DNA of 64,000 nucleotides from an uncultured Bacilli bacterium (lineage in GTDB: Bacteria > Bacillota_I > Bacilli_A > RF39 > UBA660), in the NCBI GenBank assembly GCA_947632735.1, contig CANRQG010000001.1, positions 3,903 through 67,902 of the forward strand, written 5' to 3'. The notes beneath the pieces were generated by a model. The model was not told the DNA's origin, made no database searches, and saw only the letters and a list, made by a program, of their open reading frames with translations. Positions 21,275 to 60,627 of the stretch are shown in pieces. The position numbers and the translations under genes are program-made. Position 1 is the first letter of the stretch, and every line of letters begins with the position of its first letter.

Positions 21275-21289
21275 TACTTAAAGTAAGTG

Positions 21290-21412: not shown

Positions 21413-21458
21413 AAAGAGATAAAGGCTATAAGTAAGATAATAATTAATGGGGGATGTT

Positions 21459-23234
21459 ATGAAAAGTTTACAAAAATATCTAAAAAATACAAAAATATTA
21501 AATATCTTAATGGCTCTAATATGCTATATTTCTATATGCTCATTAGGGATACTTAAAGCCTATGATACAATATCTTGGCTCATTTTAGTCATTCTAATTT
21601 TACTATTTTCTAAAACTAATTTAGAAAACAAAGTTATGAAAAAAGAAATTATAATCTTATCTATTATTTTTTCCTTTATAACAGTGTTTGGTAATGTCGT
21701 AAATAATTCAATATATAATATTGATAGCAGTGTCTTTAGAGAGTTTTTTCACCTTACCAATGTTGTCCATTTAATAGGTGCTTTTAATTTAATATTTGTT
21801 GTTTTAACAAATTTATTACCAAAATTATATAATTATTCAGCTACTACTAAGAAAAGTATCTTTAAAAATAATAAAATAATTTTTATTAGTTGTCTTCTCA
21901 TAATGCTTCTTTGCTGGCTTCCATATTTTTTAAGCTTTTATCCTGGCAACTTATCACCTGATTCTATAACTGAGTTAACTACTGTTATAAATAATTTTAC
22001 AAACGCATCAGACCATCATCCAATAATTCATATGATTTTTATTGCCATACCATATAAATTAATGTTTTCACTTACAAAGAATATGATAATAAGTATTGCT
22101 TTTTCAACCATTATCCAAATGCTAGTAATGGCTTCTATCTTTTCCTCATTAATTGTCTTTTTACATAATAGAAAAGTAAAAGATAAGCTACTAATATTTA
22201 TACTTATTTATTATGCTATACTTCCTGTTTTTGGCTATTATAGTGTTGTAATGTGGAAAGATGTAATTTTCTCTGGACTAGTATTATTACTTATAATGGA
22301 ATTAATTAAAATAATAGAAAAAGATAATAAAAATAATCTTCATTTTCATCAGCTAATACCTTTTATTATTGTTTCAATTCTTTGCATCTTTTTTAGAAGT
22401 AACGCTATTTATATGTACTTCTTACTAGTCATTTTTACTTTTATTTTTATGAAAAAACATATAAAGATATTTATAGGAGCTTTTTGTATCGTTTTCTCAG
22501 TATATTATATTATAAAAGGACCAGTATTTAATGCTTTAAATATTACTAAGTCATCCTCATCTGAATATATAGCTATACCAATGCAACAAATTGGTAGAAT
22601 GGCTTATAAAAAAGTTAATTTTACAAATAAAGAGAAGAAAAAATTAGAAAAAATAATGAGCATTGAAGACTTGGCTAAAGCTTATAACCCAATAACATCT
22701 GATGGTATTAAATTCAATAGCAATTATAACGCCAAAGCCTTTGACGAGAATAAAGGAAAATACTTTAAGTTATGGCTAAATCTAGTCAAAAAACATCCAA
22801 GTATTGCGGTTGAAGCTTATCTTATTAGTACACTAGGATATTGGTATCCAGGCGTTTCTTATAATAGTGTCTGCTTTGGTATTGTTGAAGATAATATTTA
22901 TGGTCTAAAAAATCGCCCAAAATTGGGAAATGATGTTTTAAATGTTTTATATAAATTAGAAAGTAGAGATACCCCAATTTTAAATATAGAGTGGAGTATA
23001 GGACTTTGCTTTTGGCTAATTCTCATTTTCTCCCTTTTAGCTTGTAAAAAAATTGATAAGAAATCTTTATACTTATATGTTCCTATTTTTGGTCTATGGT
23101 TAACAATGATGGTTGCGGCTCCAGTATATGCTGAATTTAGATATGTATATAGTGCCTTTATCTGCCTACCACTATTTATGGTAATACCATATCTTAATCT
23201 AAAAAAATATGATATAATGAAAACAAGGAGTTAG
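21459..23234 (+). CDS. Large polytopic membrane protein, possible GT-C-fold polyprenyl-phosphate-sugar-dependent glycosyltransferase (GtrC/YfhO-like partner of the downstream GtrB-like synthase)
   Basis: 590 aa, more than 12 predicted TM helices, no soluble catalytic motif, positioned directly upstream of a GtrB-like gene. Confidence 0.35.
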   Translation: MKSLQKYLKNTKILNILMALICYISICSLGILKAYDTISWLILVILILLFSKTNLENKVMKKEIIILSIIFSFITVFGNVVNNSIYNIDSSVFREFFHLTNVVHLIGAFNLIFVVLTNLLPKLYNYSATTKKSIFKNNKIIFISCLLIMLLCWLPYFLSFYPGNLSPDSITELTTVINNFTNASDHHPIIHMIFIAIPYKLMFSLTKNMIISIAFSTIIQMLVMASIFSSLIVFLHNRKVKDKLLIFILIYYAILPVFGYYSVVMWKDVIFSGLVLLLIMELIKIIEKDNKNNLHFHQLIPFIIVSILCIFFRSNAIYMYFLLVIFTFIFMKKHIKIFIGAFCIVFSVYYIIKGPVFNALNITKSSSSEYIAIPMQQIGRMAYKKVNFTNKEKKKLEKIMSIEDLAKAYNPITSDGIKFNSNYNAKAFDENKGKYFKLWLNLVKKHPSIAVEAYLISTLGYWYPGVSYNSVCFGIVEDNIYGLKNRPKLGNDVLNVLYKLESRDTPILNIEWSIGLCFWLILIFSLLACKKIDKKSLYLYVPIFGLWLTMMVAAPVYAEFRYVYSAFICLPLFMVIPYLNLKKYDIMKTRS

Positions 23235-39776: not shown

Positions 39777-40955
39777 ATGAAAAAGAAACTTATCATTTTA
39801 TTAGTAATAATACTCTTAGGCTTTCTTGGCTTTGCCATTTATAAAAGTTATTTTCTAAGAGAAAAACCAAAAAGTACCGCTAAAAAGAAAACTGAAGAAA
39901 AAATTCCTGATGATGTCTTAGAAAAATATAAATCACTACTTTTTGAAGATTATTATGAAGATGCTTTAAAAGTAGTAAATAAAATGTCTTTAGAAGAAAA
40001 AGTAGGCCAAATCTTCCTAGTAAGATATGACGTTAATAAAGTAGTTGAAGAAAAGTCTTATTATCCAGGAGGTTACATTTTATTTGCTAAAGACTTTGAA
40101 AATCATACTAAAGAAAGTATTAAAGAAGAAATAGATAATGACCAAAATCTAAGTAAATACCCACTGATAATTGCGGTTGACGAAGAGGGAGGAACCGTTA
40201 CTAGAGTTAGTCGCTATGAAGAACTTCGTGAATCAAAATTTCCATCACCTCAAGAAATATATAACGAAGGTGGTTATGAATTACTAAAAGAAATTGAAAA
40301 AGAAAAAGCTAATTTATTATTAAGTTTAGGCATCAATACTAATTTAGCTCCTGTAGCGGATGTTTCTACTGACCCAAATGACTTTATTTATGAAAGAAGC
40401 TTTGGTAAAAATGCTGAAGAAACAGCTGAATATATAAAGAAAATGGTTGAATATAGTAATGAAAATCATATTAATTCAACTCTAAAACACTTCCCAGGTT
40501 ATGGAAATAATGTTGATACCCATACTGGAGTAGCGATAGATGAAAGATCTTATGAAAACTTTGTAGAAAACGACTTTCTCCCATTCAAAGCTGGAATAGA
40601 AGCTAAAGTTCCTAGCATTCTTGTAAGTCATAACATTGTCGAACAAATAGACCAGGACTATCCATCATCTTTAAGTGCTAAAGTTATAGGTGAATTAAGA
40701 AATACCTTAGGCTTTAGTGGAATTATTATGACAGATGACCTAGCTATGGATGCCGTAAAATCTTATGTTGAAGATTCATCTGCTGCCACTCTTGCTTTAC
40801 AAGCCGGAAATGATATGATAATTACTAGTGACTTTATAACAATGTATAATGAAGTGCTAAATGCTGTAAAAGATGGTATAATAGATGAAAATATTTTAAA
40901 TGAAGCCGTAATAAGAGTAACTGCTTGGAAATACTATTCACATCTTTATTACTAA
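39777..40955 (+). CDS. GH3 beta-N-acetylhexosaminidase-like (NagZ-like), membrane-anchored
   Basis: KHFPGYG...VDTHTG and ...MTDDLAMDAV motifs of the GH3 N-terminal domain. Confidence 0.7.
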   Translation: MKKKLIILLVIILLGFLGFAIYKSYFLREKPKSTAKKKTEEKIPDDVLEKYKSLLFEDYYEDALKVVNKMSLEEKVGQIFLVRYDVNKVVEEKSYYPGGYILFAKDFENHTKESIKEEIDNDQNLSKYPLIIAVDEEGGTVTRVSRYEELRESKFPSPQEIYNEGGYELLKEIEKEKANLLLSLGINTNLAPVADVSTDPNDFIYERSFGKNAEETAEYIKKMVEYSNENHINSTLKHFPGYGNNVDTHTGVAIDERSYENFVENDFLPFKAGIEAKVPSILVSHNIVEQIDQDYPSSLSAKVIGELRNTLGFSGIIMTDDLAMDAVKSYVEDSSAATLALQAGNDMIITSDFITMYNEVLNAVKDGIIDENILNEAVIRVTAWKYYSHLYY

Positions 40956-40981
40956 AAATAAAAAAGAAAAGGAATGATACA

Positions 40982-42364
40982 ATGAATGATAAAAATTTAT
41001 TTACAAATTATCAAAAATACTTAAACAAAGAAGTAACCCTAGAAGGCTGGATAAAGAACCATCGTAAACAAAAAGAATTTGGTTTTATATCTTTCTCTGA
41101 CGGTACTTACTTTACTCAAATTCAAATAGTTTATGACAATAACTTAGATAACTTTGAAGAAATTACCAAGTTTCATATCGGAAGTTCTATCCAAGTAACA
41201 GGAACGGTTGTCAAGTCACCAAAAGAAAATCAACCATTTGAAATACAAGCTAGTAGTATATGCCTACTTGGTGATTGTCCTGAAGATTATCCAATTCAAC
41301 CTAAAAAACATAGTCGTGAATTTTTAAGAGAACAAGCCTATCTTCGTCCAAGAACAAATCTTTTTCAAGCTGTTTTCCAAATACGTAGCAAAGCTGCCTT
41401 CGCTATTCACGAATACTTTCAAAAAAGAGATTATGTTTACTTCCACGCTCCATTAATTACCGCAAGTGATTGTGAAGGAGCAGGGGAGATGTTCCACGTA
41501 ACAACCTTCGATTTAGAAAATGTTCCCAAAAATAAAGATGGTTCAGTTGACTATTCCAAAGACTTCTTTACTAAAGCCGCTTCTTTAACTGTTTCAGGAC
41601 AACTACAAGCAGAAACATTTGCTTTAGCTTATAAAAATGTCTATACCTTTGGACCTACCTTTAGAGCAGAAAATTCTAATACTAAGACACACGCTTCAGA
41701 ATTTTGGATGATAGAACCTGAAATAGCCTTTTGTGATTTAGAAAAAGATATGGATATTATGGAAGATATGCTTAAATACGTTGTAAAATATGTCCTAGAT
41801 AATTGCCGAGTAGAACTCGAATTTTTAGATAGTTTTGTAGAAAAAGGTCTTATTGAAAAATTGCAAAATCTAGTTAAAAAGAAAGCTATTCGTATAACCC
41901 ATTATCAAGCTATTAAAGAGTTAAAAGAATCAGGCAAAAACTTCGAATTTACTCCTGAATATGGTGAAGACTTAGCTCGAGAACACGAAAAATATTTAAC
42001 TGAAGAAAAATATAATGCTCCTGTTTTTGTCTATAACTGGCCTAAAGATATCAAAGCCTTTTATATGCGTTTGAATGATGACAACAAAACTGTCGCAGCC
42101 GTTGACTTACTAGTCCCAGGTTCCGGTGAATTGATGGGTGGTTCTCAAAGAGAAGAAAGATATGATATTCTTTTAAATCGTATGCAAGAAATGAATACAG
42201 GAGTTGAAGAACTAGATTGGTACTTAAAACTAAGAATATATGGAGGTTGCGTTCATTCCGGCTTTGGTATGGGCTTTGAAAGACTAATTATGTATTTAAC
42301 TGGTGTAGAAAATATAAGAGATGTTATTCCATATCCAAGAACACCAGGTAATTGCGAATTTTAA
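40982..42364 (+). CDS. asnS: Asparagine--tRNA ligase
   Basis: N-terminal OB-fold segment, class II motifs (FRAE..., GGSQREER, GFGMGFERL). Confidence 0.85.
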   Translation: MNDKNLFTNYQKYLNKEVTLEGWIKNHRKQKEFGFISFSDGTYFTQIQIVYDNNLDNFEEITKFHIGSSIQVTGTVVKSPKENQPFEIQASSICLLGDCPEDYPIQPKKHSREFLREQAYLRPRTNLFQAVFQIRSKAAFAIHEYFQKRDYVYFHAPLITASDCEGAGEMFHVTTFDLENVPKNKDGSVDYSKDFFTKAASLTVSGQLQAETFALAYKNVYTFGPTFRAENSNTKTHASEFWMIEPEIAFCDLEKDMDIMEDMLKYVVKYVLDNCRVELEFLDSFVEKGLIEKLQNLVKKKAIRITHYQAIKELKESGKNFEFTPEYGEDLAREHEKYLTEEKYNAPVFVYNWPKDIKAFYMRLNDDNKTVAAVDLLVPGSGELMGGSQREERYDILLNRMQEMNTGVEELDWYLKLRIYGGCVHSGFGMGFERLIMYLTGVENIRDVIPYPRTPGNCEF

Positions 42365-45852: not shown

Positions 45853-47799
45853 ATGCTAGGAACAATAAAAGAAATTATCGATAATAGCGTTATAATTAAA
45901 CTTAATATTGATATTAATGAACAGCCAAACCTTATTAATATTCACGTTGTCTTTGATGATGGCTCATCTAGAAAAGTAGTAGGTGAGATAGCTAACGTTA
46001 ACCAAAATGAAATGGTTGTTAATATTGTAGGTGAAATTGATAATAATAGCTTTATCCCAGGGTCTAGTTCCAAGCCATCTTTTAAATCATCCATTCGAAT
46101 AATTGATGCCAGCGAGTTAGAACTTCTCCTTGGCCCTCAAGAAGTAGCTCCAGGAAAAACTAATTTTGGTACCAGTAATGTTTATTCAGGTTATAAAATA
46201 AATGTTGAAGTAAATGAATTTTTCAATACTCACTTTGCCATTTTAGGAAATAGTGGTGCCGGAAAAAGCTGTACCGTTGCATCCATCTTGCAAAAATTGT
46301 TCACTAGTAGTAAAACTCCACCAATAAATTCCAATCTTTTCTTCTTTGATGCTTATGGTGAATATACCAATGCCTTTAGTAAGCTCCACGAAGTAAACCC
46401 TCTTTTAAACTACAAATCATATACAACCAACACTATTGAACCAGAATGTGAAATACTTCGCATTCCACCTTGGCTACTTGATGTAGATGATTTAGCTTTA
46501 CTTTTAGATGTAACAACTCCAACTCAAATACCAATGATCGAAAAAACACTTAAATTAGTACCTATCTTAACAGGTAGTAGTGAAAATGTTATAAAAAGAA
46601 AAAATGATATAATTGCTAGAGCTCTACAAGACATTCTATTATCTGGAAATGATTCAACTAAAATACGTGACCAAGTAATAGGTGTATTAACAAAATTTAA
46701 TACTCCAACATTAAATCTAGAAACACAAATTGTTCAACCAGGTTATACTAGAACTTTTAAACAATGCTTATTCGTTGATAAAAGTGGAAAAATGCAAGAA
46801 ATGGAATTAGTCGTAGAATTTGTTCGTGGCTATATTCTTGAAGTAGCTGAAGAAATTCCTAAAGAAGAGCTAAATCCATACTATACTTTATCAGATTTAG
46901 AGTTAGCAATGGAATTTGCTTTAATTAGTGAAGGTATTTTAAAAAGTGATAAAGTCTTTGATTATGCTAATATTATTAGTGTTAGACTTCATTCCCTAGC
47001 AACGGGTGATTATAAATCATATTTTGAATATCCAACCTTTGTAAATAAAGACCAGTATATTGAAGACTTAATGACTAATGAAAATAATCAAAAATGTCAA
47101 ATAATAAACTTTAATATTAACTATGTTGATGACCGTCTAGCTAAAGTTTTTACTAAAATCTTATCAAGAATGCTTTTCTTAAAATCAAGTACTACAAAAC
47201 CACGTGGTAGTAGAGCTTTCCATATAATTATTGAAGAGGCCCATCGTTATGTTCAACACGATAGTGATGTTGAAATTTTAGGTTATAATATCTTTGAAAG
47301 AATCACAAAAGAGGGTCGTAAATATGGAACTTTCTTAGCCTTAATCACTCAAAGGCCAAGTGAATTATCTGATACTTGTATTTCTCAATGTGCAAACTTT
47401 GTCGTATTAAGAACTCTTCACCCCGTTGATTTAAAATATATTAAAGAAATGGTTCCTAACGTTTCTTCAGAAATTGTTTTACAATTAAAAAATCTTAAAC
47501 CAGGTAACTGCATAGCCTTTGGTTCAGCCTTTAAAGTTCCTATTCCTATGTATATAGATTTACCAAACCCTCGTCCTTTAAGTAATAATGTTAACTTAAA
47601 TGACATTTGGTATCGCCAAATCTCTTCTCCTGGTGCTAAAGAAATTCAACCTGGTATAAATCCTGGCATAAATCCCGGTATAAATCAAAGCATAACCCCA
47701 GGTATAAATGGTATGGTAAACCCCGTTGCTTATCAGCAAGTCCCTCAAGCTCCAGTAGCTAGTACTCCTCAAGTACCAAATGGACAACCAATTAGTTAG
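45853..47799 (+). CDS. HerA/DUF87-like P-loop ATPase with an N-terminal barrel domain and a C-terminal Pro/Gly-rich (PGIN)n low-complexity tail
   Basis: Walker A ILGNSGAGKSCT, Walker B-like FHIIIEEAHRY, N-terminal HAS-barrel-like segment. Tail PGINPGINPGINQSITPGINGMVNP. Confidence 0.5.
   Translation: MLGTIKEIIDNSVIIKLNIDINEQPNLINIHVVFDDGSSRKVVGEIANVNQNEMVVNIVGEIDNNSFIPGSSSKPSFKSSIRIIDASELELLLGPQEVAPGKTNFGTSNVYSGYKINVEVNEFFNTHFAILGNSGAGKSCTVASILQKLFTSSKTPPINSNLFFFDAYGEYTNAFSKLHEVNPLLNYKSYTTNTIEPECEILRIPPWLLDVDDLALLLDVTTPTQIPMIEKTLKLVPILTGSSENVIKRKNDIIARALQDILLSGNDSTKIRDQVIGVLTKFNTPTLNLETQIVQPGYTRTFKQCLFVDKSGKMQEMELVVEFVRGYILEVAEEIPKEELNPYYTLSDLELAMEFALISEGILKSDKVFDYANIISVRLHSLATGDYKSYFEYPTFVNKDQYIEDLMTNENNQKCQIINFNINYVDDRLAKVFTKILSRMLFLKSSTTKPRGSRAFHIIIEEAHRYVQHDSDVEILGYNIFERITKEGRKYGTFLALITQRPSELSDTCISQCANFVVLRTLHPVDLKYIKEMVPNVSSEIVLQLKNLKPGNCIAFGSAFKVPIPMYIDLPNPRPLSNNVNLNDIWYRQISSPGAKEIQPGINPGINPGINQSITPGINGMVNPVAYQQVPQAPVASTPQVPNGQPIS
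47650..47709 (+). repeat. Five imperfect 12-bp tandem repeats (cctggtataaat) encoding (PGIN)n
   Basis: Read directly: cctggtataaat / cctggcataaat / cccggtataaat / caaagcataacc / ccaggtataaat. Confidence 0.7.
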
Positions 47800-48052: not shown

Positions 48053-48493
48053 ATGGCTTTAGATAAATTAAAAGGTTTATTCGGTGGCGATGATACAGAA
48101 GAAAAAGATGTTTCACCTGATGAAGAATACTACACAACTACAAGAGAAGAGTTTCATACCGCTAATGGTGATGCTGAAAGTAAGATGATGCTTTTAGAAC
48201 CAAGAGCTTATTCTGAAAGTCAACAAATCGCTGATTATTTAAAAAATCGTAGTGCTGTCGTTGTAAACTTAAAAAGAGTAACACCTGATGTTGCCAAAAG
48301 AATTGTTGATTTTTTATATGGCTGCATTTATGCTATTGGTGGTGATTTGCAAAAACTAGGTGGTGGAATTTTCCTATGTACACCAAATAATGTCAATGTA
48401 GAAGGTAAAATAAGTGAAGATGCCACTACTCAAAGTAAACAAAACCGTAGTAAAAAAGAAAAAGTAGAAGAAGATGAAGAAGATTTCTTTTAA
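48053..48493 (+). CDS. sepF: Cell division protein SepF
   Basis: [30 protein letters not shown]...[25 protein letters not shown] matches the SepF core. Confidence 0.8.
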
Positions 48494-48520: not shown

Positions 48521-48958
48521 ATGGAAAAATTTAGTTATGAAGCTAATGGATATAATCGTTCTGAAGTTAATCAATTTGTAAGTGATGTTATAAAACAAAC
48601 AGAAGGTATAGTCGCAAGATGTAAAGAACAAAGAAGTGATATAGAAAAATTAAAGTCTGAATTAGAACATTATAAAAATCTTGAACGAACTTTAAACTTA
48701 GCTCTTATTAAAGCAGAAGAAACAGCTGATAGTATTAAAAGAGTTGCGAGAGAAGAATCAGAAATGATTGTTACTGATGCTAAACATAATGCTTCACGTA
48801 TAGTTAATGAAGCCTTACTTAAGGCTGAAAAAATTCAGGCTAAAAATGATACCTTAGAACAGAATATGAAAATATTTAAAAGAAAACTAAAACTTATTAT
48901 AGAACAGCAACTAGCTGTTGTAGATGAAATAGAAGTATTAGAACTAGACCCTAAATAG
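48521..48958 (+). CDS. DivIVA-domain protein
   Basis: FSYEANGYNRSEVNQFVSDV matches the DivIVA N-terminal motif; coiled-coil remainder. Confidence 0.65.
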   Translation: MEKFSYEANGYNRSEVNQFVSDVIKQTEGIVARCKEQRSDIEKLKSELEHYKNLERTLNLALIKAEETADSIKRVAREESEMIVTDAKHNASRIVNEALLKAEKIQAKNDTLEQNMKIFKRKLKLIIEQQLAVVDEIEVLELDPK

Positions 48959-49034
48959 GTCTTTTCTTCTCTTATAAGCATATATTTAAATAAAAAATAA
49001 TTGTCAAATAAGTAATAATATGATATATTACTAA

Positions 49035-49257
49035 CGAAAGCAAGTGCGAAAGACGGAATATTTTGGAATTTAAAGAGAGCTTGTGTTTGGTGTAAACAAG
49101 TAAGGAAGAAATATTTAGATCACTTTCAAGTTGCGATTTATGGATAAGATAAATACGATTAAACACGTTATAGTTTACAAAAGATAAGTTATTACTTATG
49201 AATTAAGGTGGTACCACGAACTATTCGTCCTTACTAGGATGAATGGTTTTTATTTTT
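49035..49257 (+). promoter_or_regulatory. T-box riboswitch leader (probable Ile specifier AUC) with terminator and antiterminator
   Basis: AATTAAGGTGGTACCACG at 49201-49218 matches the T-box consensus AATTAGGGTGGTACCGCG 16/18. Terminator AUUCGUCC-uuacua-GGAUGAAU plus a U-run at 49223-49257. AGAGAG distal motif and a ...uagAUCAc... candidate specifier upstream. Promoter TTGTCA at 49001. Confidence 0.6.
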
Positions 49258-49271
49258 TGAAAGGAGAATTT

Positions 49272-50222
49272 ATGTTAATAAATATAATTTTATTGATATT
49301 GGGGTTCGTAATTTTAATAAAAGGTGCCGACTTCTTTGTTGATGGAGCTAGCTCAGTTGCCCAAAACTTTAAAGTGTCAAAGATGTTAATAGGTTTAACT
49401 ATTGTAGCTTTTGGTACCTCTCTTCCTGAGTTCGCTGTTAGTGTAAAATCCATACTCTTAAAAAGCGGCGATTTAGTTTTAGGCAATGTAATAGGTAGTA
49501 ATATCTTAAATATTTTACTTATTTTAGGCTTATCAGCAATGTTTCATCCACTTACTGTAAAAAATAATACTGTAAAAAAAGAACTTCCGATAGCAATGCT
49601 AATTACTGTTCTTTTCGCTATTTTATTATCTGATAATATTTTTAATACAAAGGTTTTTAATGAATTCACAAGAAGTGATGGCCTTATTTTACTCTTATTC
49701 TTTACCGTATTTATCTATTATCTTATAAGTATGCTTCGTAATAAAGTTGCAAACTCTGAAAGTAAATCACCTTTGTCTTTACAAAAAGCCATTGCTTTTA
49801 CAGTTCTAGGTATCATTGCTATTATGTTTGGTAGTAGTATGGTCGTTAATCATTCTACACAACTAGCCCGTCTTTTAGGCGTAAGTGAAAGAATGATAGC
49901 TTTAACTATCGTTGCCCTAGGAACTTCTTTACCAGAGTTAGTAACATCCTTGACGGCTACAAAAAAAGGCGAATATGATATCGCTATCGGAAACGTTGTT
50001 GGAAGTAACATTTTCAATATTGGTATTGTTATTGGACTACCGATAGCCTTATTTGGTGGAGTCTCAAACATAACCTTTAGCTATATTGATATTGTTACTA
50101 TGATTTTATCAGCTATACTTTTATTTATGTTTTCCTTTAATGATTATAAAATATCTAAAAAAGAGGGACTCATCTTTCTTTTACTATTCATTAGCTACTA
50201 TGGCTATGTAATTTTCGCTTAG
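49272..50222 (+). CDS. Ca2+/cation antiporter (CaCA/YrbG family), copy 1
   Basis: Two alpha-repeat motifs GTSLPEL and GNVIGSNIFNI. RBS aaggag. Confidence 0.75.
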   Translation: MLINIILLILGFVILIKGADFFVDGASSVAQNFKVSKMLIGLTIVAFGTSLPEFAVSVKSILLKSGDLVLGNVIGSNILNILLILGLSAMFHPLTVKNNTVKKELPIAMLITVLFAILLSDNIFNTKVFNEFTRSDGLILLLFFTVFIYYLISMLRNKVANSESKSPLSLQKAIAFTVLGIIAIMFGSSMVVNHSTQLARLLGVSERMIALTIVALGTSLPELVTSLTATKKGEYDIAIGNVVGSNIFNIGIVIGLPIALFGGVSNITFSYIDIVTMILSAILLFMFSFNDYKISKKEGLIFLLLFISYYGYVIFA

Positions 50223-50230
50223 GAGGAATT

Positions 50231-51184
50231 ATGCTTTTAAAAACAACACTCCTTATTATAGGATTTATTATTTTAATAAAAGGTGCTGACATTTTAATTG
50301 ATGGAGCAAGTTCCATTGCGACCAAATTCAAAGTATCCAAACTCTTAATAGGACTTACCATAGTCAATTTAGGAACAGGGGCTCCTGAGTTAGCCATAGG
50401 TTTTAAAGCCATTCTCTCCGGAAATGGCGATATCGTCTTAGGTAATGTAATAGGCAGTAATATCTTAAATATTCTCCTGATAGTTGGTGTATCATCATTA
50501 TTTAGAAGTATCACCGTTAGAAGTAGTACCGTAAAAAAAGAATTACCAATTGCCCTTTTAATAACTCTCCTTTTTTCACTTCTTATTTCTGATAATCTTT
50601 TTGATTCAAGTATGGTAAATAGTTTTACTAGACGTGAGGGAATAATCCTTATTCTCTTCTTCTCGATATTTATTTATTATTTATTTACGATGTATCATAA
50701 TAAAATTGATGAAGACCAAGAAACTATATCTGTTTTTTCCAATAAAAGAAGTATCATTTATATAATATTAGGAATAATTTGTGTTATTTTAGGTAGTAAC
50801 TTAGTAGTAGATAACGCTGTTAGTCTAGCTCAAAAAATAGGTATTTCTGAAAGAATAATTGCTCTAACCATCATAGCTTTAGGCACATCTCTTCCAGAAT
50901 TAGTAACGTCAATAACTGCTACTAAAAAAGGTGAATTTGATATAGCCATAGGTAATATTGTAGGAAGTAATATCTATAACATCGGACTTGTCCTAGGTTT
51001 ACCAGTTGCATTGTTTGGAACTATCACAAACATAACTGTTAATTATATTGACGTTGCTACAATGATTTTATCAGCTATATTACTTTATATGTTTTCTTTT
51101 AATGATTACAAAATTACTAAAAAAGAAGGTATTGTCTTTCTCTTCTTATTCGCAATTTACTATGCATATATAATTTTTTTCTAA
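50231..51184 (+). CDS. Ca2+/cation antiporter (CaCA/YrbG family), copy 2 (tandem paralog)
   Basis: Same architecture; about 55% identical pattern to copy 1. Confidence 0.75.
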   Translation: MLLKTTLLIIGFIILIKGADILIDGASSIATKFKVSKLLIGLTIVNLGTGAPELAIGFKAILSGNGDIVLGNVIGSNILNILLIVGVSSLFRSITVRSSTVKKELPIALLITLLFSLLISDNLFDSSMVNSFTRREGIILILFFSIFIYYLFTMYHNKIDEDQETISVFSNKRSIIYIILGIICVILGSNLVVDNAVSLAQKIGISERIIALTIIALGTSLPELVTSITATKKGEFDIAIGNIVGSNIYNIGLVLGLPVALFGTITNITVNYIDVATMILSAILLYMFSFNDYKITKKEGIVFLFLFAIYYAYIIFF

Positions 51185-51203
51185 ATGAAAGTAGGTGTAT
51201 TTT

Positions 51204-54200
51204 ATGAAATTTAAAAAATTAGAACAAGGAAAAATCAATGAAATTGAAGAAAAATTTACTAAAGAATGGGATAAAGTAGATATTTACACAAAAACTGTGG
51301 AAAACAGAAAAAATAATGATACTTTTGTCTTTTATGATGGTCCAGCAACCGCTAACGGTATGCCAGGAATTCATCACACTTTAGCTAAACTTTTAAAAGA
51401 CACTATCTGTAAATATAAAACTATGCAGGGTTATAAAGTTATTAGAAAAGTAGGGTGGGATACCCACGGTTTACCAGTAGAAGTTCAAGTCGAAAAAGAA
51501 TTGAATTTTACTAGTAAAAATGATATTGAAGAGTACGGCATAAAAGAATTTAACCAAAAATGTCGTGAAAGTGTTTGGAAAAATGAAGAATACTTTACTA
51601 AATTTACCAAGCAAATGGGCCAGTTCATTGACCTAGAACATCCTTATATTACTTATAATAATGACTATATCGAAACAGAATGGTGGATTTTAAAGAAAAT
51701 CTTTGATGATGGCTATATTTATAATGGTCTAAAAATAGTTCCTTGGTGCCCAAGATGCGGTACCGGTCTTGCTTCCCACGAAGTAGCTCAAGGCTATAAA
51801 GAAATATCCGTTAATACCGTTTATGTCCCATTCAAATTAAAAAACGAAGAAAATACTTACTTCCTAGTTTGGACAACTACTCCCTGGACACTAATCTCTA
51901 ATGTCGCTTTATGTGTAAACCCTAATGAGACATATGTCAAATGTGCGTCAAAACGTTATAACTTCATTGTTGTAAAAGCCTTAGCTGACTCTATTCTAGG
52001 AACCGACTATGAAGTAGTAGAAGAGTATAAAGGTAAAGATTTAGAATTTGTTGAGTATGAACAATTAATGCCTTTTCTAAAGACCGACAAAAAAGGCTTC
52101 TATGTAACTTGTGACAATTACGTAACAACAGAAGATGGTACTGGTATTGTTCATATAGCTCCAGCTTTTGGTCAAGATGACTATGAAGTGGGCTTAAAAT
52201 ATAATTTACCTGTTTTAAACCCTGTAGGTGAAGATGGCTGCTACACAGAAGGTCCGTGGAAAGGTCGTTTAGTTGTTGACCCTGAATTAGAACTTGACAT
52301 AATTAAATACTTAGCCAGTGAAGATAAACTCTTTAAAAAACAAAAGATAAATCACGATTATCCACATTGTTGGAGATGTAAAACACCACTAGTTTATTAT
52401 TCAAAACCATCTCTATATATAAAAACTACAGCTAAAAAAGATGAAATTATCGCTGAAAATAAAAAAATCGCTTGGCATCCCGATTATGTCGGTGAAAAAA
52501 GATTTGAAAACTGGCTTCAAAATATGAATGATTGGGCTATTTCTCGTAACCGTTATTGGGGTTGTCCAATTCCTCTTTGGAAATGTGAATGTGGCAATGA
52601 AATAATGATAGGCTCTCGTGAAGAATTAAAGAACTTAGCCATAGAAGAAGTAAAAGATGACTTAGATTTACATCGCCCATATGTAGATGATATTCATATT
52701 GAATGTCCAAAATGTCATAAGAAAATGACTAGAATTCCTGATGTCATTGATTGCTGGTTTGACTCTGGTTCAATGCCTTTTGCACAGTATCATTACCCAT
52801 TTGAAAATAAAGAACTTTTTGAAAGCCAATTCCCAGCTGATTTTATAGCCGAGGGAATAGACCAAACAAGAGGTTGGTTCTATGCTCTTTTAGTAATCTC
52901 TACCTTTATTACCGGCCAAACACCATATAAAAATGTTTTAGTAAACGATTTATTACTAGATAAATATGGTCAAAAAATGCATAAGTCTCGTGGTAATACC
53001 GTAAGTCCCTTTGAAATTATGGAAAAATATGGCGCTGATACCGTAAGATTTTATATGCTATACGCATCTCCTGTTTGGACTCCTTTAAAATTTGATGAAG
53101 ACGGTGTCAAAGAAATTTATTCAAAATATATCTCCACTTTTAAAAATGCCTATTCATTCTTCGAAATGTATGCTAATGCCGATGATATAGACCCAAGAAC
53201 CTATAATATTCCTGTAAAAAACCGTCCTTTAATTGACCGTTGGCTAATTTCTAAATTAAATAAATTAATAAAAGAAGTAAATAATGCTTTCTTAGAATAT
53301 GATTTAAATAAAGTTGCCAAATTAATAGTGCCATTTTTAAATGATGACTTATCTAATTGGTATATTAGAAGTAATAGAAGACGTTTTTGGGATAGTGAAT
53401 TAACTGAATCTAAAAAATGTGTTTATCTAACTACCTATGAAGTATTAATTGAATTATGCAAATTATGTGCTCCATTAACGCCATTCTTAACTGAAGAAAT
53501 ATATCAAAAATTAACAAATGAAAAATCCGTTCATCTAGCTAATTATCCAATTGAAAATGACGATTTAATCGATGAGGCAACTGAAGAAAAAATGGACTTA
53601 GTAAGAGACATTTGCTCCCTAGGACGTTTTGCTAGAGAAGAAGCTAATATCAAAGTACGTCAACCAATAAGTAGCCTAATCTTACCAAAAAGTGATGAAC
53701 TTATCATCGGTAATTTACTACCAATTATCAAAGAAGAATTAAACGTCAAAGAAATCGTCTTCAAAGAAGATATGAGTGATTATCTAGAATATGTTGTAAA
53801 ACCAAACTTTAAAGTACTAGGAAAAACACTAGGTCCAAGAATTAAACTACTTCAAGAAGTATTAAATAATTTATCCAGCAAAGATGTTGCCAAAATATCT
53901 GAAGATGGTTTAACAATTAGTCTTGGTGGTGATGATTACACAATTACCGAAGATATGGTACTTATAACTCTAAAACAAAAAGAAGGCTATGCTTCAACAT
54001 CTAATAACAAAACTTGCGTTGTTCTAGATACAGAATTAACAGAAGATTTAATATTAGAAGGCTTAGCCCGTGAATTTGTTCGTAAAGTTCAATCCCTTCG
54101 TAAAGAAGCTGACTTCGTAATAACTGACCATATCAAAGTTTACTATAATGGCTCTGATAAAATAAAAAAGATGCTAGAAAAATATCAAGATTATGTTATG

Positions 54201-54299
54201 AATGAAGTCCTAGGTGATGAACTAATAGAAGATAAAAAACTAGACAATATGGAATCTTTAAATGATGAAAAAGCTTCTATTAAAGTCGAAAAAATCTAA
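51204..54299 (+). CDS. ileS: Isoleucine--tRNA ligase, type 2 (eukaryote-like, ~1030 aa form)
   Basis: HIGH-region variant (PGIHH), CP1 editing domain, KMSKS-equivalent KMHKSRGN, long C-terminal extension without the type-1 Zn finger. Confidence 0.85.
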   Translation: MKFKKLEQGKINEIEEKFTKEWDKVDIYTKTVENRKNNDTFVFYDGPATANGMPGIHHTLAKLLKDTICKYKTMQGYKVIRKVGWDTHGLPVEVQVEKELNFTSKNDIEEYGIKEFNQKCRESVWKNEEYFTKFTKQMGQFIDLEHPYITYNNDYIETEWWILKKIFDDGYIYNGLKIVPWCPRCGTGLASHEVAQGYKEISVNTVYVPFKLKNEENTYFLVWTTTPWTLISNVALCVNPNETYVKCASKRYNFIVVKALADSILGTDYEVVEEYKGKDLEFVEYEQLMPFLKTDKKGFYVTCDNYVTTEDGTGIVHIAPAFGQDDYEVGLKYNLPVLNPVGEDGCYTEGPWKGRLVVDPELELDIIKYLASEDKLFKKQKINHDYPHCWRCKTPLVYYSKPSLYIKTTAKKDEIIAENKKIAWHPDYVGEKRFENWLQNMNDWAISRNRYWGCPIPLWKCECGNEIMIGSREELKNLAIEEVKDDLDLHRPYVDDIHIECPKCHKKMTRIPDVIDCWFDSGSMPFAQYHYPFENKELFESQFPADFIAEGIDQTRGWFYALLVISTFITGQTPYKNVLVNDLLLDKYGQKMHKSRGNTVSPFEIMEKYGADTVRFYMLYASPVWTPLKFDEDGVKEIYSKYISTFKNAYSFFEMYANADDIDPRTYNIPVKNRPLIDRWLISKLNKLIKEVNNAFLEYDLNKVAKLIVPFLNDDLSNWYIRSNRRRFWDSELTESKKCVYLTTYEVLIELCKLCAPLTPFLTEEIYQKLTNEKSVHLANYPIENDDLIDEATEEKMDLVRDICSLGRFAREEANIKVRQPISSLILPKSDELIIGNLLPIIKEELNVKEIVFKEDMSDYLEYVVKPNFKVLGKTLGPRIKLLQEVLNNLSSKDVAKISEDGLTISLGGDDYTITEDMVLITLKQKEGYASTSNNKTCVVLDTELTEDLILEGLAREFVRKVQSLRKEADFVITDHIKVYYNGSDKIKKMLEKYQDYVMNEVLGDELIEDKKLDNMESLNDEKASIKVEKI

Positions 54300-54350: not shown

Positions 54351-54391
54351 AGCTTAAATATAGTAAAATAAAAGAGAAAAGAGTGTTGTCT

Positions 54392-54664
54392 ATGGATATT
54401 GATTTTTCAAAAATAAATGATATATATGGAAAAGATATTTTATATTCCTGTGGAGAAAACTTTGATGATTTAGTAGAAAATATCACTATATTAAAAAAAC
54501 TAGGTATTGAAAATATCTATGAAGTAGTAGAACGCTATCCCTTACTATTTTTAGACGATTCCAAAGATTTTAGCTCTAAAATAAATAATTTTTTCCTACA
54601 CCTTGGTACAAACTATAAAGAAATACTTGAAAATAATATGACTTTATGGGAGGAACTATTATGA
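54392..54664 (+). CDS. Small mTERF-like repeat protein
   Basis: LKKLGIENIYEVVERYPLLFLDDSKDF resembles an mTERF repeat unit (...LG.s...i..iv.r.P.ll..s.e...). Confidence 0.3.
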   Translation: MDIDFSKINDIYGKDILYSCGENFDDLVENITILKKLGIENIYEVVERYPLLFLDDSKDFSSKINNFFLHLGTNYKEILENNMTLWEELL

Positions 54665-56376
54665 ATGAATATGACCTAGTAAAACTTTTTTTAAAATATC
54701 ATATTGACTATGAAAGTCTAAAAGAAATAACTATTACTAATGATATTAACAATTTAGAAGAAATATTAAGATATCTAATTAATGAAAAAAAGATAAGTCC
54801 CAAAAATTTAGCCAAATCTCCCAGCATTTTTAATACCAAAAGTATCACAATAAAAGATAACTTTTCCTTCTTAGAAGAAGTAAATTTAAAAAAAGCCCTA
54901 AGTAATTGTCTCCACGTTTTAAATACCAATAATGACAAATTAAAAGAAACCTATTACTATGTCCTAGAAAATTACGGTCCAAGTTATCTTGAAAAAATAA
55001 CTTCTATTTTAAGTGTTCCTGTTGAAAGAATTAAATTAATCGAATTATCTTTTAGTGATACTTTATCTAAAGAAAACATCCTAAGTGCCGCTACTAGTAA
55101 ATTTGATATATTCGATTTAACCAAAATAATTAATACCTGCATAAATGAAAAAATAAAAATACTACCAACTGTTTTTCTAAGAAATTCCGATGAAATAAAA
55201 GCTCTTTCAACCATCTGTCATCAGAAAAAAGTATCTCTAAATACTACTATGTTTCATCGTAGTCCTGATGAAGTAGAACAAATTATAAACTTTTGCCAAG
55301 AAAATTCTCTTGCTATACTAGGAGCTTACTTCTTAAGAAAACCTGATGAAGTAGAAGAAATAATTAATATTACCAAAAATATTTCCGACAAGCCTCTTAG
55401 TCTAGCTTTCAATAGAACTCCTAGTGAAGTAAAAGATATTATCAAAATCTGCCAAGAAGAACAAACACCTCTTACTTCCAATATGTTTTTACGTACTCCC
55501 GACGAAGTCAAAAAAATAATTAAACTATGTCAAAAAGAAAATATTCCCCTAACAGGTAGCCATTTCCAACAACCTTACCAAGACTTTGAAGATATCCTTG
55601 GCTATTGTCAAGAAAATAATCTTAATCTAACAGCGTCAATGCTTTTTCGTAAAAAAGACGAAATATCTTCCATTAGAAGTTTTTGCAACGAAAAAAATCT
55701 TCCTATCTATGAAACTATGTATAAAAGAACACCTAGTGAAGTAGAAGAAATTTTTAATTACTGTTCAAAAAATAATCTTTCCATAACACCAAATCTCTTT
55801 AGAAAAAAGCCCCACGAAACCACAACCATCATAACTACTTGTAAAAATTTAAAACTACCACCATCATCAGTAGTATTTAAAAGAACCCCTGATGAAATAA
55901 TTGATATAACTAGTATCTTTTTAAAATATTTTAAAACCCTTCCGATAAAAAATGCCTTTAATCAAAAACCAAAAGAAGTAGAAGATATAATAAAACTTTG
56001 CCTTAGCAAAAATATCGCAATAACAGGTACTCTTTTTCAAAAAAAAGCCCCAAGTATCAAAGATTCTATTGATTACTTAGAAAAAAATTACGGAGAAAAA
56101 TATTTAAAACCACTAATTATTATCAAAGACAAAAACCATCTAGCTAAAGTTTTTCCTCTCCTTGATAGCTTAGGCGTTCTAGATATCGTCATAAATAGTC
56201 CCAGTATTTTAACATTAACCGAAGAAGAAATAAAAGATAGAATTGCTTTTTTAGATAGAATAAATGAAAATATCGTTGTAGGAGAAACCTTTAATTCCCT
56301 TTTTGGCTTATCTAGAAAAAATTATCTTCTCCGAGTAGAAAAAGAAAATAATAAAGAAGGAGCCTTAACACTATGA
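54661..56376 (+). CDS. Tandem-repeat protein built of ~36-aa units (F.R.PDEV..II..C.....L.), mTERF-like
   Basis: At least 10 consecutive units, e.g. FLRNSDEIKALSTICHQKKVSLNTTM / FHRSPDEVEQIINFCQENSLAILGAY / FLRKPDEVEEIINITKN... / FNRTPSEVKDIIKICQEEQTPLTSNM / FLRTPDEVKKIIKLCQKENIPLTGSH. Confidence 0.35.
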   Translation: MNEYDLVKLFLKYHIDYESLKEITITNDINNLEEILRYLINEKKISPKNLAKSPSIFNTKSITIKDNFSFLEEVNLKKALSNCLHVLNTNNDKLKETYYYVLENYGPSYLEKITSILSVPVERIKLIELSFSDTLSKENILSAATSKFDIFDLTKIINTCINEKIKILPTVFLRNSDEIKALSTICHQKKVSLNTTMFHRSPDEVEQIINFCQENSLAILGAYFLRKPDEVEEIINITKNISDKPLSLAFNRTPSEVKDIIKICQEEQTPLTSNMFLRTPDEVKKIIKLCQKENIPLTGSHFQQPYQDFEDILGYCQENNLNLTASMLFRKKDEISSIRSFCNEKNLPIYETMYKRTPSEVEEIFNYCSKNNLSITPNLFRKKPHETTTIITTCKNLKLPPSSVVFKRTPDEIIDITSIFLKYFKTLPIKNAFNQKPKEVEDIIKLCLSKNIAITGTLFQKKAPSIKDSIDYLEKNYGEKYLKPLIIIKDKNHLAKVFPLLDSLGVLDIVINSPSILTLTEEEIKDRIAFLDRINENIVVGETFNSLFGLSRKNYLLRVEKENNKEGALTL

Positions 56377-58858: not shown

Positions 58859-59365
58859 ATGATAAATAAACAAAATTTATGGTTTTTAACATTATTTACA
58901 TTAATATTAGTCCTTAGTATTTACTATGTAACAATGCCCAATGATTTATTAGTAGAAGCCATAAAAAAAGAACCAAAAACAGAAACTAAAGCCGAAGCCA
59001 AAGATACTATTGAAGAAGTATCCAGTTTAGTCGCAATGCGAGTTAGCCTAGAAGAAGAAAGACAAACCGTAATGGACGAGCTACAAGAAAAGTTAACAAA
59101 TGATGAAACAACTAGTGAAGAAAAAAATAACGCTTATGAACAACTAAAATACCTAAATGAAGTTCAGGGAAAAGAAGAAGCAATTGAAAAGAAAATAAAA
59201 AAAGAATATAATCTTGATTGCTTTGTCAAAATAGACAATAATAATGCCAATTGTGTTTGTGTATCATCAAAGCACGACAATACCTTAGCAAATAACATCA
59301 TGCGTCTTATACAAGAAAATTATAAAAATAAAATGTACACAACCGTTAAATTCCAAAAATCTTAA
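58859..59365 (+). CDS. SpoIIIAH-like protein
   Basis: N-terminus MINKQNLWFLTLFTLILVLSIYYV resembles B. subtilis SpoIIIAH MLKKQTVWLLTML...LSVYYI. Acidic linker and C-terminal domain. Confidence 0.45.
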   Translation: MINKQNLWFLTLFTLILVLSIYYVTMPNDLLVEAIKKEPKTETKAEAKDTIEEVSSLVAMRVSLEEERQTVMDELQEKLTNDETTSEEKNNAYEQLKYLNEVQGKEEAIEKKIKKEYNLDCFVKIDNNNANCVCVSSKHDNTLANNIMRLIQENYKNKMYTTVKFQKS

Positions 59366-59427
59366 AATAGGTAAAAACATACAACTAATTTTTAACTTTT
59401 CATACAATACTTTAGGTGATAAGAAAA

Positions 59428-59634
59428 ATGGCAAATAATATATTAACGCCTCGTGAACGAAAAATCTTTGAGCTTTTAATAGATAATATGAGTACAAAAC
59501 AAATAGCTTTAGAACTAGGTATTAGTGAAAAGACGGTTCGTAATCATATATCAAACGTTATGCAAAAACTTGGAGTTAATGGTCGAGCAGGAGCTGTTGT
59601 TGAATTGTTAAAACTTAAAGAATTATCCATCTAA
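59428..59634 (+). CDS. gerE: GerE-like LuxR-type HTH transcriptional regulator
   Basis: LTPRERKIFELL...TKQIALELGISEKTVRNHISNVMQKLGVNGRAGAVVELLKL; near-identical motif string to B. subtilis GerE (ISEKTVRNHISNAMQKLGV). Confidence 0.75.
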   Translation: MANNILTPRERKIFELLIDNMSTKQIALELGISEKTVRNHISNVMQKLGVNGRAGAVVELLKLKELSI

Positions 59635-59662
59635 AACGTACTAAAAAAGTGCGTTTTTTCAT
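59635..59662 (+). terminator. Rho-independent terminator after gerE
   Basis: AACGTAC-taaaaaa-GTGCGTT with a T6 run. Confidence 0.45.
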
Positions 59663-59682
59663 ATACTTTTTTAGGTGATAAA

Positions 59683-60627
59683 ATGCTTAGAACAAGAGCC
59701 TTAAAAAAAATATTCATAACAACACTTTCAATGTTTATTTTATTAACTGTTTTTTCTTTACCAACATTTAAAAAAGAAACTGTTTTAAGGACAAATCTTG
59801 AAGTAGAAGAAAAAACTACTCTAAAAACCAATAGTATCTATCTATTAAATAAAGATAATTATTTAGTAAAAACCAAAATATTTATAGAAGCAACTGATAA
59901 AGAAGATAAGATTAGAGAAATCCTTAATAATTTAATTATAAAAAAAAATAATAAATTACCAACTGGCTTAAGTGGCACTATTCCAAGTGAAACTACTGTT
60001 CAAGAAGTAATTGTTAATAAGGATATAGTTACTATTGATTTTTCTAAAGAAATATTAAAAGTACAAGAATCTTTAGAAAAGCAAATGATTACTTCAATAG
60101 TTTATAGTCTTTTAGAATTAAAAGACCTAAAAGGTGTAATTGTTCTAGTTAATGGTAATACATTACTAGAATATCCTAATTCTAAAGAAAAGCTTCCATC
60201 TATCTTAGATAAGAAAATTGGTATTAATAATAAATATTTATTAACATCCCGGGATAATATCTCTAAAGTTGTTATCTATTACTTAGAAGATATAGAAGAA
60301 AATCTTTACTACGTGCCTGTTACAAAATACATAAATGATAACCGTGACAAGATAAAAATTATAATTGAAGAGTTAACTACCAATTATATTTATGAGCCTA
60401 ATCTTATGAGTTTTTTAGATAATAAAGTTGAACTACTTGATTATCACGAAGAAAATGATGTCTTATTTCTAAACTTCAATGATTATTTATATAATAGTAA
60501 AGATAAAATTTTAGAAGAAGTTTTATATAGTATTGCTTATTCTGTCTTTGACAATTATAACGTTAATATGGTTATGTTTGAAGTTAATGAAAAAGAAGTA
60601 AAATATATTTCAAAAAAAGACATTTAA
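59683..60627 (+). CDS. GerM-like protein with two GerMN domains (sporulation/germination)
   Basis: Signal/lipoprotein-like N-terminus. Segment ...IREILNNLI...LPTGLSGTIPSETTVQEVIVNKDIVTIDFSKE fits the GerMN pattern. Confidence 0.45.
   Translation: MLRTRALKKIFITTLSMFILLTVFSLPTFKKETVLRTNLEVEEKTTLKTNSIYLLNKDNYLVKTKIFIEATDKEDKIREILNNLIIKKNNKLPTGLSGTIPSETTVQEVIVNKDIVTIDFSKEILKVQESLEKQMITSIVYSLLELKDLKGVIVLVNGNTLLEYPNSKEKLPSILDKKIGINNKYLLTSRDNISKVVIYYLEDIEENLYYVPVTKYINDNRDKIKIIIEELTTNYIYEPNLMSFLDNKVELLDYHEENDVLFLNFNDYLYNSKDKILEEVLYSIAYSVFDNYNVNMVMFEVNEKEVKYISKKDI

Follow-up and report, generated by a model that had tools for sequence, protein, structure and literature searches.

Antiporter genes of the CaCA family between the isoleucine T-box leader and ileS in uncultured gut Bacilli

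Introduction

Why do two genes for Ca2+/cation antiporters stand between an isoleucine T-box leader and ileS, the gene for isoleucyl-tRNA synthetase (IleRS), and does that leader control them? The question is raised by a stretch of 64,000 nucleotides (nt) from an uncultured Bacilli bacterium (contig CANRQG010000001.1), here called the window, in which the leader, the antiporter genes caca1 and caca2, and ileS follow one another on the forward strand (Table 1). An earlier sequence-only reading of the window had left two answers: either the antiporters became inserted between ileS and its leader and are now under tRNA-Ile control, or the T-box governs the transporters. We found that the leader is a typical T-box of the ileS family, that antiporter genes in the same place are a conserved feature of the clade, and that they were inserted behind an existing ileS leader, probably as passengers.

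In a T-box, as established in the literature, uncharged tRNA stabilises an antiterminator, and charged tRNA lets a terminator form. A T-box directly in front of ileS is the near-universal state of Firmicutes, and this arrangement has been put forward as the archetypal T-box (Wels et al. 2008).

Results

The leader is an isoleucine T-box

Rfam model RF00230 was matched over its full length (model positions 1-219) by 49035-49235 in a permissive scan of 48900-49350 (451 nt), with 86.7 bits and an E value of 1.4e-19. The gathering score of this model is 93 bits. A whole-window Rfam scan at the gathering threshold returned one tRNA and no T-box; the T-box was missed because its score is slightly below 93. 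Orthologous ileS leaders of relatives (related loci are given L numbers) scored 77.8-99.4 bits against RF00230. Most leaders of the clade stayed below 93, such as those of L050 (9767-9966, 85.1 bits), L053 (9765-9965, 79.4), L055 (9767-9964, 77.8) and L057 (9708-9903, 81.0), and the leader of L028 reached 99.4 bits. A profile hidden Markov model (HMM) of 62 orthologous leaders scored 180 bits across 49021-49259.

Stem I carries an AG bulge and a distal loop, which together form the platform for the tRNA elbow in T-box leaders. Both align with the conserved AGAGA and GGUG motifs of the model and are almost invariant in leader alignment A1. The specifier codon AUC and the purine behind it lie directly 5' of the closing CUUU helix of Stem I, in the Rfam alignment as well as in the fold. 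Their columns (A, T, C, A) were invariant in all 62 aligned orthologous leaders, and so were the T-box GGUGGUACC columns. RNAalifold recovered Stem I and the antiterminator from the leader alignment, with compensatory changes in 21 of 28 pairs. By sequence alignment, the K-turn (GA motif) region at the foot of Stem I reads GUGCGAAAGA in the window and gaUGAaagGGA in the model; leaders of more distant relatives have the classical AUGAUGGAGA there.

In the antiterminator, AAGG (49205-49208) pairs with CCUU (49229-49232) and ACGA pairs with UCGU. The bulge UGGU (49209-49212), present in 56 of 56 leaders examined, would pair with the 3' ACCA of the tRNA. The terminator folds with -20.8 kcal/mol (z = -5.3), and none of 200 shuffled sequences was equally stable. 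Terminator and antiterminator share 49218-49232, so they are mutually exclusive and the switch is of the transcriptional type. The sequence-only reading had placed a T-box with terminator and antiterminator at 49035-49257 and had named AUC as a candidate isoleucine specifier. Both hold up: the element spans 49035-49259, Stem I folds and its pairs covary, and AUC-A sits in the specifier loop.

A predicted promoter lies directly upstream of the leader, with 10 of 12 consensus matches and a TG ahead of the -10 in a consensus scan. TTGTCA/TTGTAA-17-TGnTATATTA was kept at an equal distance upstream of the leader in most related loci, whether CaCA was present or not. Moreover, the segment upstream of the leader had more strong promoter matches than the 140 nt ahead of ileS or internal controls. 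Six loci (L043, L046, L056, L070, L072, L077) looked different: the Ile leader begins right after the apparent divIVA end (...DIEKVDF stop), and the 62 nt upstream of it contain no recognisable -35/-10 like that of the window's clade. In these loci the leader may be reached by read-through from divIVA or from a promoter inside divIVA.

The genes behind the leader encode CaCA antiporters

As the sequence-only reading had seen, the first genes behind the T-box are two tandem paralogues of the Ca2+/cation antiporter family. PF01699 (Na_Ca_ex) was found twice in each protein (CaCA1 219.9 bits, E 1.9e-65; CaCA2 213.9 bits, E 1.3e-63). Both passed the cut-off of TIGR00367 (calcium/sodium antiporter, NCBIfam; 239.5 and 224.9 bits against 179.65), and neither reached the stricter E. 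coli-type equivalog NF008005 (227.6 and 221.8 against 432). CaCA1 aligned end to end with the crystallised exchanger NCX_Mj of Methanocaldococcus jannaschii (PDB 5HWY/3V5U; E 1.7e-41), and 11 of the 12 ion-site residues are identical (A47, T50, S51, E54, S77, N81, A206, T209, S210, E213, S236). The proteins resemble NCX_Mj and the bacterial YrbG family in length, in the two alpha-repeats (GTSLPE) and in conserved ion-coordinating residues. The twelfth residue, D240 of NCX_Mj, is Asn in both copies; presumably eukaryotic NCX proteins also have Asn at this position. CaCA2 additionally carries A47N and S51G, and its alpha-1 repeat reads GTGAPE instead of GTSLPE; therefore the ion site is only partly kept in copy 2.

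Among the 77 informative loci tallied below, a second copy was otherwise found only in L027. The second copies of the window and L027 group together on the CaCA tree, have longer branches and have the derived alpha-1 motif GTG[A/T]PE in common. The ratio of nonsynonymous to synonymous substitution rates was about 0.20 for copy 2, compared with copy 2 of L027, and about 0.13 for copy 1, with synonymous sites saturated. Both copies are under purifying selection.

Since T-box specifiers have been used to reassign transporter substrates, including those of NhaC-family 'antiporters' (Wels et al. 2008), we asked whether the CaCA-like proteins might really be carriers of isoleucine or other branched-chain amino acids. 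This is hardly credible. CaCA1 matches NCX_Mj from end to end with its ion-site residues, TIGR00367 is passed, orthologues stand elsewhere in the genome without a T-box, and the leader is the ileS leader and not a duplicated copy of it. The ion-site residues argue that the CaCA proteins are genuine Na+/Ca2+ exchangers rather than amino-acid carriers.

No separate signal was found in front of ileS

The ileS product scored 960.9 bits against TIGR00392 (cut-off 621.4) and contains the Pfam domains tRNA-synt_1, Anticodon_1 and DUF5915. The MupA and MupB resistance models were not reached (927 and 893 against 1900).

The gap between caca1 and caca2 is 8 nt, and the ribosome-binding site (RBS) of caca2, AGGAGG, overlaps the caca1 stop codon. 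Sequence, terminator scan and fold agree with the earlier observation that ileS (ATG at 51204) begins 19 bp after caca2 (stop at 51184) with no terminator between them: no terminator-like site was found between 49260 and 51204, and no fold at either junction was stable above shuffled controls. In the 27 related loci with ileS right behind CaCA, the junctions are 10-38 nt long and consist of stop codon, RBS and ATG, with frequent overlap of stop and RBS. A second T-box, a terminator or a conserved promoter was sought between CaCA and ileS, and none was found.

It might be argued that transcription is uncoupled, so that ileS is transcribed mainly from its own promoter in the 3' part of caca2 or the T-box transcript stops before ileS, in which case the Ile T-box would in effect govern the antiporters only. 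The sequence is AT-rich and rich in -10-like hexamers, a promoter-like site (9 of 12 matches) lies on the + strand inside caca2 at 51054-51081, and extended -10 motifs were found within 150 nt of ileS in 18 of the 27 loci. However, such motifs were found in 15 of 27 internal CaCA controls, and their frequency also equals the shuffled expectation. The mean best promoter match was 8.67 of 12 at CaCA 3' ends and 8.41 in internal controls, which is no excess, and in the 140 nt ahead of ileS promoter-like motifs were no commoner than in control segments inside CaCA or ileS. The lack of a terminator or stable hairpin from 49260 to 51204 and the short junctions also speak against uncoupling. Furthermore, no second T-box precedes ileS anywhere, so that an uncoupled ileS would lose a control that is near-universal in Firmicutes, and cargo-free loci have the same leader 10-50 nt from the ileS ATG. 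We therefore consider uncoupled transcription highly unlikely, and caca1, caca2 and ileS are probably co-transcribed.

Antiporter genes stand in the leader-ileS slot throughout the clade

An IleRS-anchored scan with one genome per species gave 80 loci with IleRS 64-89% identical. All derive from metagenome-assembled genomes, labelled as uncultured gut Bacilli or "Tenericutes", that were obtained from samples of rabbits, ruminants, mice and humans; a closed 1.31-Mb chromosome is among them. Wherever a locus extended far enough upstream, it had exactly one leader orthologous to that of the window. A regular expression for the T-box core missed 12 leaders, all of which were recovered by the profile HMM. 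Two regular-expression matches, one in L028 and one in L057, found no Rfam confirmation and were dropped as T-boxes.

The slot between leader and ileS was tallied in 77 informative species-level loci, window included. It holds an intact CaCA in 32 of them. In one (L007), whose leader is almost identical to that of the CaCA-bearing L004, a truncated CaCA remnant was found, and L005 has a short spacer that resembles a deletion scar and is probably one. Another insert occupies the slot in 16 loci, and in the remaining 27 a gap of 10-50 nt separates the leader from the ileS ATG. The leader HMM detected no second T-box between CaCA and ileS at any locus. Because the invariant columns and the covariation are found in one alignment, the leaders before CaCA and the leaders directly before ileS are the same Ile T-box. 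A simple calculation of terminator energy gave weak values for some direct loci; these are an artefact of segmenting, as the terminator there pairs with the Stem III region. T-box-CaCA-ileS is thus a conserved clade-wide architecture, normally with one CaCA, and is not peculiar to the genome of the window.

As the organism of the window is uncultured and all its relatives are known from metagenome assemblies, a chimeric contig might have joined T-box, antiporters and ileS falsely. This was ruled out by independent recurrence. The same order recurs in 32 independent species-level genomes, which stem from several studies and hosts, and in 38 further metagenome contigs, and an identical CaCA1 protein occurs in separate samples with the neighbours sepF-divIVA-CaCA-CaCA-ileS.

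The other inserts are diverse (Table 1). Three loci have a CYTH-domain protein, and L078 has a decayed CYTH N-terminus followed by a 140-aa (amino acid) orphan, which resembles the L072 open reading frame (ORF) by eye; no match was found by tblastn. Small very basic ORFs of 56-77 aa directly upstream of ileS, either right behind the leader or after CaCA, have the motif DLR[IV]GAFxxWP, YVGxxILGY[KR]F or INIGYKGIINRNQD. Neither these small ORFs nor the cargo proteins of about 200 aa and about 135 aa matched a Pfam or NCBIfam family. In L042, a 372-nt non-coding spacer (1951-2324) lies between the Ile leader and ileS; it contains a promoter-like TTGACT...TACATT and G+C-rich hairpin-forming segments, and no + strand ORF of at least 25 aa.

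The antiporters were inserted behind the ileS leader

Given that Firmicutes almost universally have the direct arrangement, a slot with cargo is the derived state. On the IleRS tree, T-box-CaCA-ileS is dominant in the window's clade with scattered losses, and it also occurs in several deep branches. Pairwise distances of CaCA and IleRS co-vary (Mantel r 0.68; none of 2000 permutations as high), and therefore the insertion is old and was mostly inherited vertically. The CaCAs of L033 (9024-9977) and L034 (9023-9973) are 0.22-0.25 distant from those of the window's clade, compared with 0.32-0.34 for IleRS, and the CaCA tree places them within that clade; this cargo may have been exchanged laterally or have recombined.

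A scan anchored on CaCA1 gave 80 metagenome loci with 64-74% identity. The complete order T-box-CaCA-ileS was present in 38 of them, and about 27 have neither T-box nor ileS although both flanks are present. These stand-alone CaCAs form at least two or three groups within the ileS-linked clade and have varied neighbourhoods. No Rfam RNA was found upstream of a stand-alone CaCA in the 7 loci scanned, and the leader HMM found no T-box at stand-alone CaCAs over the 80 loci. Therefore, the antiporter functions outside T-box control, and it has moved out of the operon on several occasions. In L154, a CaCA lies 3.7 kb upstream of an IleRS-like fragment, with no T-box.

These comparisons support the first of the two scenarios, in which the antiporters entered an existing unit of leader and ileS and came under tRNA-Ile control. 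There is one orthologous leader family with an invariant AUC, there is no second T-box, CaCA remnants are seen in L007 and L005, and relatives show ileS either directly behind the T-box (27 of 77) or with an intact CaCA in between (32 of 77).

A Ser T-box operon has a similar layout

In a sub-clade with a direct ileS leader, a Ser T-box is followed by a gene for a 165-aa HD protein, in some loci a GNAT acetyltransferase gene, and serS (Table 1). The Ser T-box has the specifier UCA and the bulge UGGC; it scored 97.3 bits in L036 and 94.7-99.9 bits in L050, L053 and L055. The closest solved relative of the HD protein is a (p)ppApp hydrolase (PDB 7smg, E 2.9e-22). The GNAT gene was found between the HD gene and serS in two loci (L036 and L039), and L050 has a 416-nt gap in place of the hydrolase gene.

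Table 1. Features of the ileS operon in the window and of related operons (positions without a locus number refer to the window)
Feature	Position	Strand	Description and basis
sepF	48053-48493	+	Pfam SepF; outside the T-box unit
divIVA	48521-48958	+	Pfam DivIVA; outside the T-box unit
Operon promoter (predicted)	49001-49029	+	-35 TTGTCA (49001-49006), 17-nt spacer, extended -10 TGaTATATT (hexamer 49024-49029)
Ile T-box leader, transcription-attenuation type	49035-49259	+	Stem I, Stem II, IIA/B region, Stem III, antiterminator/terminator; Rfam RF00230
Stem I	49040-49134	+	Minimum free energy fold of 49035-49135, Rfam alignment, covariation in leader alignment A1
AG bulge of Stem I	49074-49078	+	AGAGA
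Distal loop of Stem I	49086-49096	+	UUUGGUGUAAA, containing GGUG
Specifier codon and 3' purine	49119-49122	+	AUC (Ile, 49119-49121) and conserved A (49122); Rfam and orthologue alignment
T-box sequence	49201-49218	+	AATTAAGGTGGTACCACG / AAUUAAGGUGGUACCACG; sequence
T-box sequence and antiterminator	49201-49232	+	Sequence; helix by RNAalifold, pairs invariant or compensated
Intrinsic terminator	49218-49258	+	Hairpin 49218-49249 (14 pairs) and U-run TTATTTTTTG / UUAUUUUUUG; terminator scan
caca1 RBS	49260-49268	+	AAAGGAGAA
caca1	49272-50222	+	NCX_Mj/YrbG-type Ca2+/Na+ antiporter, 316 aa; Pfam, NCBIfam, NCX_Mj match
caca2	50231-51184	+	Tandem paralogue, 317 aa, 64% identical to caca1 product (BLASTP)
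caca2-ileS junction	51185-51203	+	19 nt, RBS GTAGGTG only; sequence, fold z = +0.55 against shuffles
ileS	51204-54299	+	Type-2 isoleucyl-tRNA synthetase, 1031 aa, DUF5915 C-terminal domain; TIGR00392, Pfam
Cargo: CYTH-domain protein	L065:9423-9995, L074:1143-1721, L038:1892-2437		PF01928, 48 bits
Cargo: decayed CYTH N-terminus	L078:9492-9560		MNTEIEVRVLNID...stop, then 140-aa orphan
Cargo: family of about 200 aa	L063; after CaCA in L073, L080
Cargo: family of about 135 aa	L072, L078
Cargo: small very basic ORFs behind the leader, directly upstream of ileS	L049:9797-9976, L062:8577-8762, L068:7836-8006, L076:9802-9987; related L058:9810-9989, L071:4093-4431		56-77 aa
Cargo: small basic ORFs after CaCA	L052:6984-7214; further L017:9772-9957, L018:9807-9989, L002:9828-9989
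Ser T-box operon	L036:16581-19132, L039:19585-22105, L045:7468-9410, L055:17730-19731, L053:16468-18463, L050:16478-18366		T-box, HD protein, (GNAT), serS

Neighbouring genes

The genes sepF and divIVA, classical Firmicute neighbours of ileS, lie upstream of the T-box unit, and a weak terminator-like hairpin (48946-48962) was found at the end of divIVA. Upstream of sepF is a gene for an HerA/DUF87-type ATPase (45853-47799), which is kept beside sepF-divIVA in most relatives. In the window this protein has a proline-rich tail of PGIN repeats, and the DNA that encodes the tail is a 12/24-nt tandem repeat (47650-47709).

Directly after ileS, at 54383-56376, there are a 93-aa ORF and an overlapping 576-aa protein, and L014, L016, L029 and L031 have them in the same place. 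Neither protein has a convincing Pfam or NCBIfam family. By eye, the 576-aa protein contains repeats of roughly 35-40 aa. In L025, a tandem array of about seven weakly similar segments spans 13510-22223, and arrays are also present in L030.

Another synthetase is encoded in the window at 40925-42364, a class II enzyme of the Asp/Lys/Asn type (PF00152 and OB fold). The start codon of its gene is a TTG, overlaps the preceding gene and is not preceded by a leader; only ileS has a T-box in the window. SpoIIIAH-like and Germane domain proteins (sporulation/germination) are encoded at 58859-60627, in a gut bacterium that otherwise looks Mollicutes-like, with a small genome.

Discussion

We propose that a single conserved promoter starts a transcript that begins with a canonical Ile T-box leader. 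With charged tRNA-Ile, the hairpin 49218-49249 and its U-run would end transcription. With uncharged tRNA-Ile, the anticodon would pair with AUC and the free ACCA end with UGGU; the antiterminator would be stabilised, and RNA polymerase would read through into a polycistronic caca1-caca2-ileS mRNA. The antiporters would thus be expressed in step with IleRS, and more strongly when tRNA-Ile charging drops.

The operon probably arose when an early ancestor of these uncultured gut Bacilli, a clade with small genomes, acquired a CaCA gene in the slot between leader and ileS. Mostly vertical inheritance would have followed, with a tandem duplication in the lineage of the window and L027 and several losses or relocations. 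The most likely reading, which we favour with some caution, is that the antiporters are entrenched passengers of a T-box-regulated ileS operon, that is, ordinary housekeeping Na+/Ca2+ exchangers that probably have no need for isoleucine-dependent control. Three observations speak for it: orthologues that have moved elsewhere carry no T-box, CaCA has repeatedly decayed or been lost, and the slot holds an assortment of unrelated cargo. Because separating the essential ileS from its sole promoter and leader would be harmful, only precise deletions would remove the cargo.

Alternatively, the antiporters might be selected members of a tRNA-Ile-responsive regulon, in which the ileS T-box serves as a general starvation sensor in regulator-poor, amino-acid-dependent bacteria, for example to adjust cation gradients for Na+-coupled uptake of branched-chain amino acids. 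The arrangement is present in 32 of the 77 genomes and in 38 of the 80 CaCA-anchored loci, the order is kept at 65% IleRS identity with saturated synonymous sites, and both CaCA copies are under purifying selection. Other slot cargo may plausibly be signalling enzymes, such as CYTH and, behind the Ser T-box, the (p)ppApp-hydrolase-like protein, and a published analogue exists, since lysine riboswitches precede genes for NhaC-type antiporters, the role of which is under debate. However, orthologues outside the operon have neither a T-box nor another leader, CaCA has repeatedly been lost or deleted, and the slot also houses miscellaneous orphan ORFs. Moreover, we know of no biochemical link between Na+/Ca2+ exchange and isoleucine, and entrenchment beside an essential gene accounts for the conservation without selection on regulation. 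We consider adaptive co-regulation somewhat unlikely.

Several observations weigh against the passenger reading or the switch on which it builds. The Rfam score of the window's leader is slightly under the gathering threshold. No tRNA-Ile gene (partner anticodon GAU, discriminator A73) was found in the window or in 48 related loci. We infer the co-transcription of caca1-caca2-ileS and the absence of an internal ileS promoter from sequence, and in AT-rich DNA promoter-like hexamers are ubiquitous by chance (33 found, 34.5 expected). The arrangement is kept down to 65% IleRS identity, which leaves room for an adaptive explanation. The CaCAs of deep branches (L046, L052, L080) are more divergent than IleRS predicts, which could reflect faster evolution or separate captures; repeated independent capture is therefore possible and would argue for selection. 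Finally, an alarmone hydrolase that may be under tRNA-charging control in the Ser T-box operon is not obviously accidental and keeps the adaptive explanation alive.

The switch itself adds no new mechanism; the operon content is the unusual part. Like the ileS T-box of Bacillus subtilis and Staphylococcus aureus, the window's leader lies downstream of sepF and divIVA, has an Ile specifier and a UGGN bulge, targets ileS and acts by transcription attenuation through terminator and antiterminator (Wels et al. 2008; Grundy 1997, as cited there). In contrast to these, the window has 1.9 kb with two membrane antiporters between leader and ileS, its leader scores 86.7 bits where the gathering score is 93, and its IleRS is of type 2 with DUF5915.

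Where a T-box operon has its synthetase in second place, as in cysE-cysS, the leading gene typically serves the metabolism of that amino acid. T-box operons with the Cys and Asn tRNA ligase genes share with the window that the synthetase is not the first gene behind the leader (Wels et al. 2008), whereas the leading genes of the window are ion exchangers with no known isoleucine link. The T-box-regulated NhaC-family transporters and the lysine riboswitch-NhaC pairs also place a cation-antiporter-family gene under an amino-acid-sensing RNA, and for them it is debated whether the protein is an amino-acid carrier or a genuine antiporter. Their leaders are dedicated to the transporter, whereas the transporter of the window is inside a synthetase operon and belongs to the CaCA family.

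The sequence-only reading had called the arrangement atypical for T-box regulons, and against the published lists this holds. The T-box transporter families are ABC, APC, DAACS, LIVCS, MFS, NhaC and NSS (Wels et al. 2008), and CaCA is not among them. The T-box targets in a review of C. difficile are synthetases, amino-acid metabolism, amino-acid transport and an ACT protein. The genes of a classical regulon act on the amino acid of the specifier, which is true of ileS and not of caca1 and caca2. Targeted literature searches found no report of a T-box with a CaCA or calcium antiporter, or of extra genes before ileS. The operon is thus a conserved, previously unannotated expansion of T-box-controlled operons, and its structure went unnoticed because the ileS leaders of the clade are mostly below the Rfam gathering threshold and are missed by standard annotation.

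A broader and more tentative idea, which we think unlikely, is that the clade's synthetase T-box leaders have been co-opted as general tRNA-charging sensors that drive non-translation genes too. The Ile leader may then drive Na+/Ca2+ antiporters, a CYTH enzyme or small basic proteins, and the Ser leader a (p)ppApp/(p)ppGpp-hydrolase-like protein and GNAT. If this is true, caca-caca-ileS would be no neutral accident but part of an expanded T-box regulon with physiological meaning, which joins amino-acid starvation to ion homeostasis and alarmone turnover.

T-box control is usually taken to cover only synthetases and genes for the synthesis and uptake of amino acids, an assumption that is used for specifier-based annotation of transporters. 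The operon described here suggests that such specifier-guided annotation can mislead, and that an operon layout beside an essential gene can trap passengers for very long periods. It also makes directly testable whether regulator-poor gut bacteria place ion transport and alarmone hydrolysis under the control of tRNA charging.

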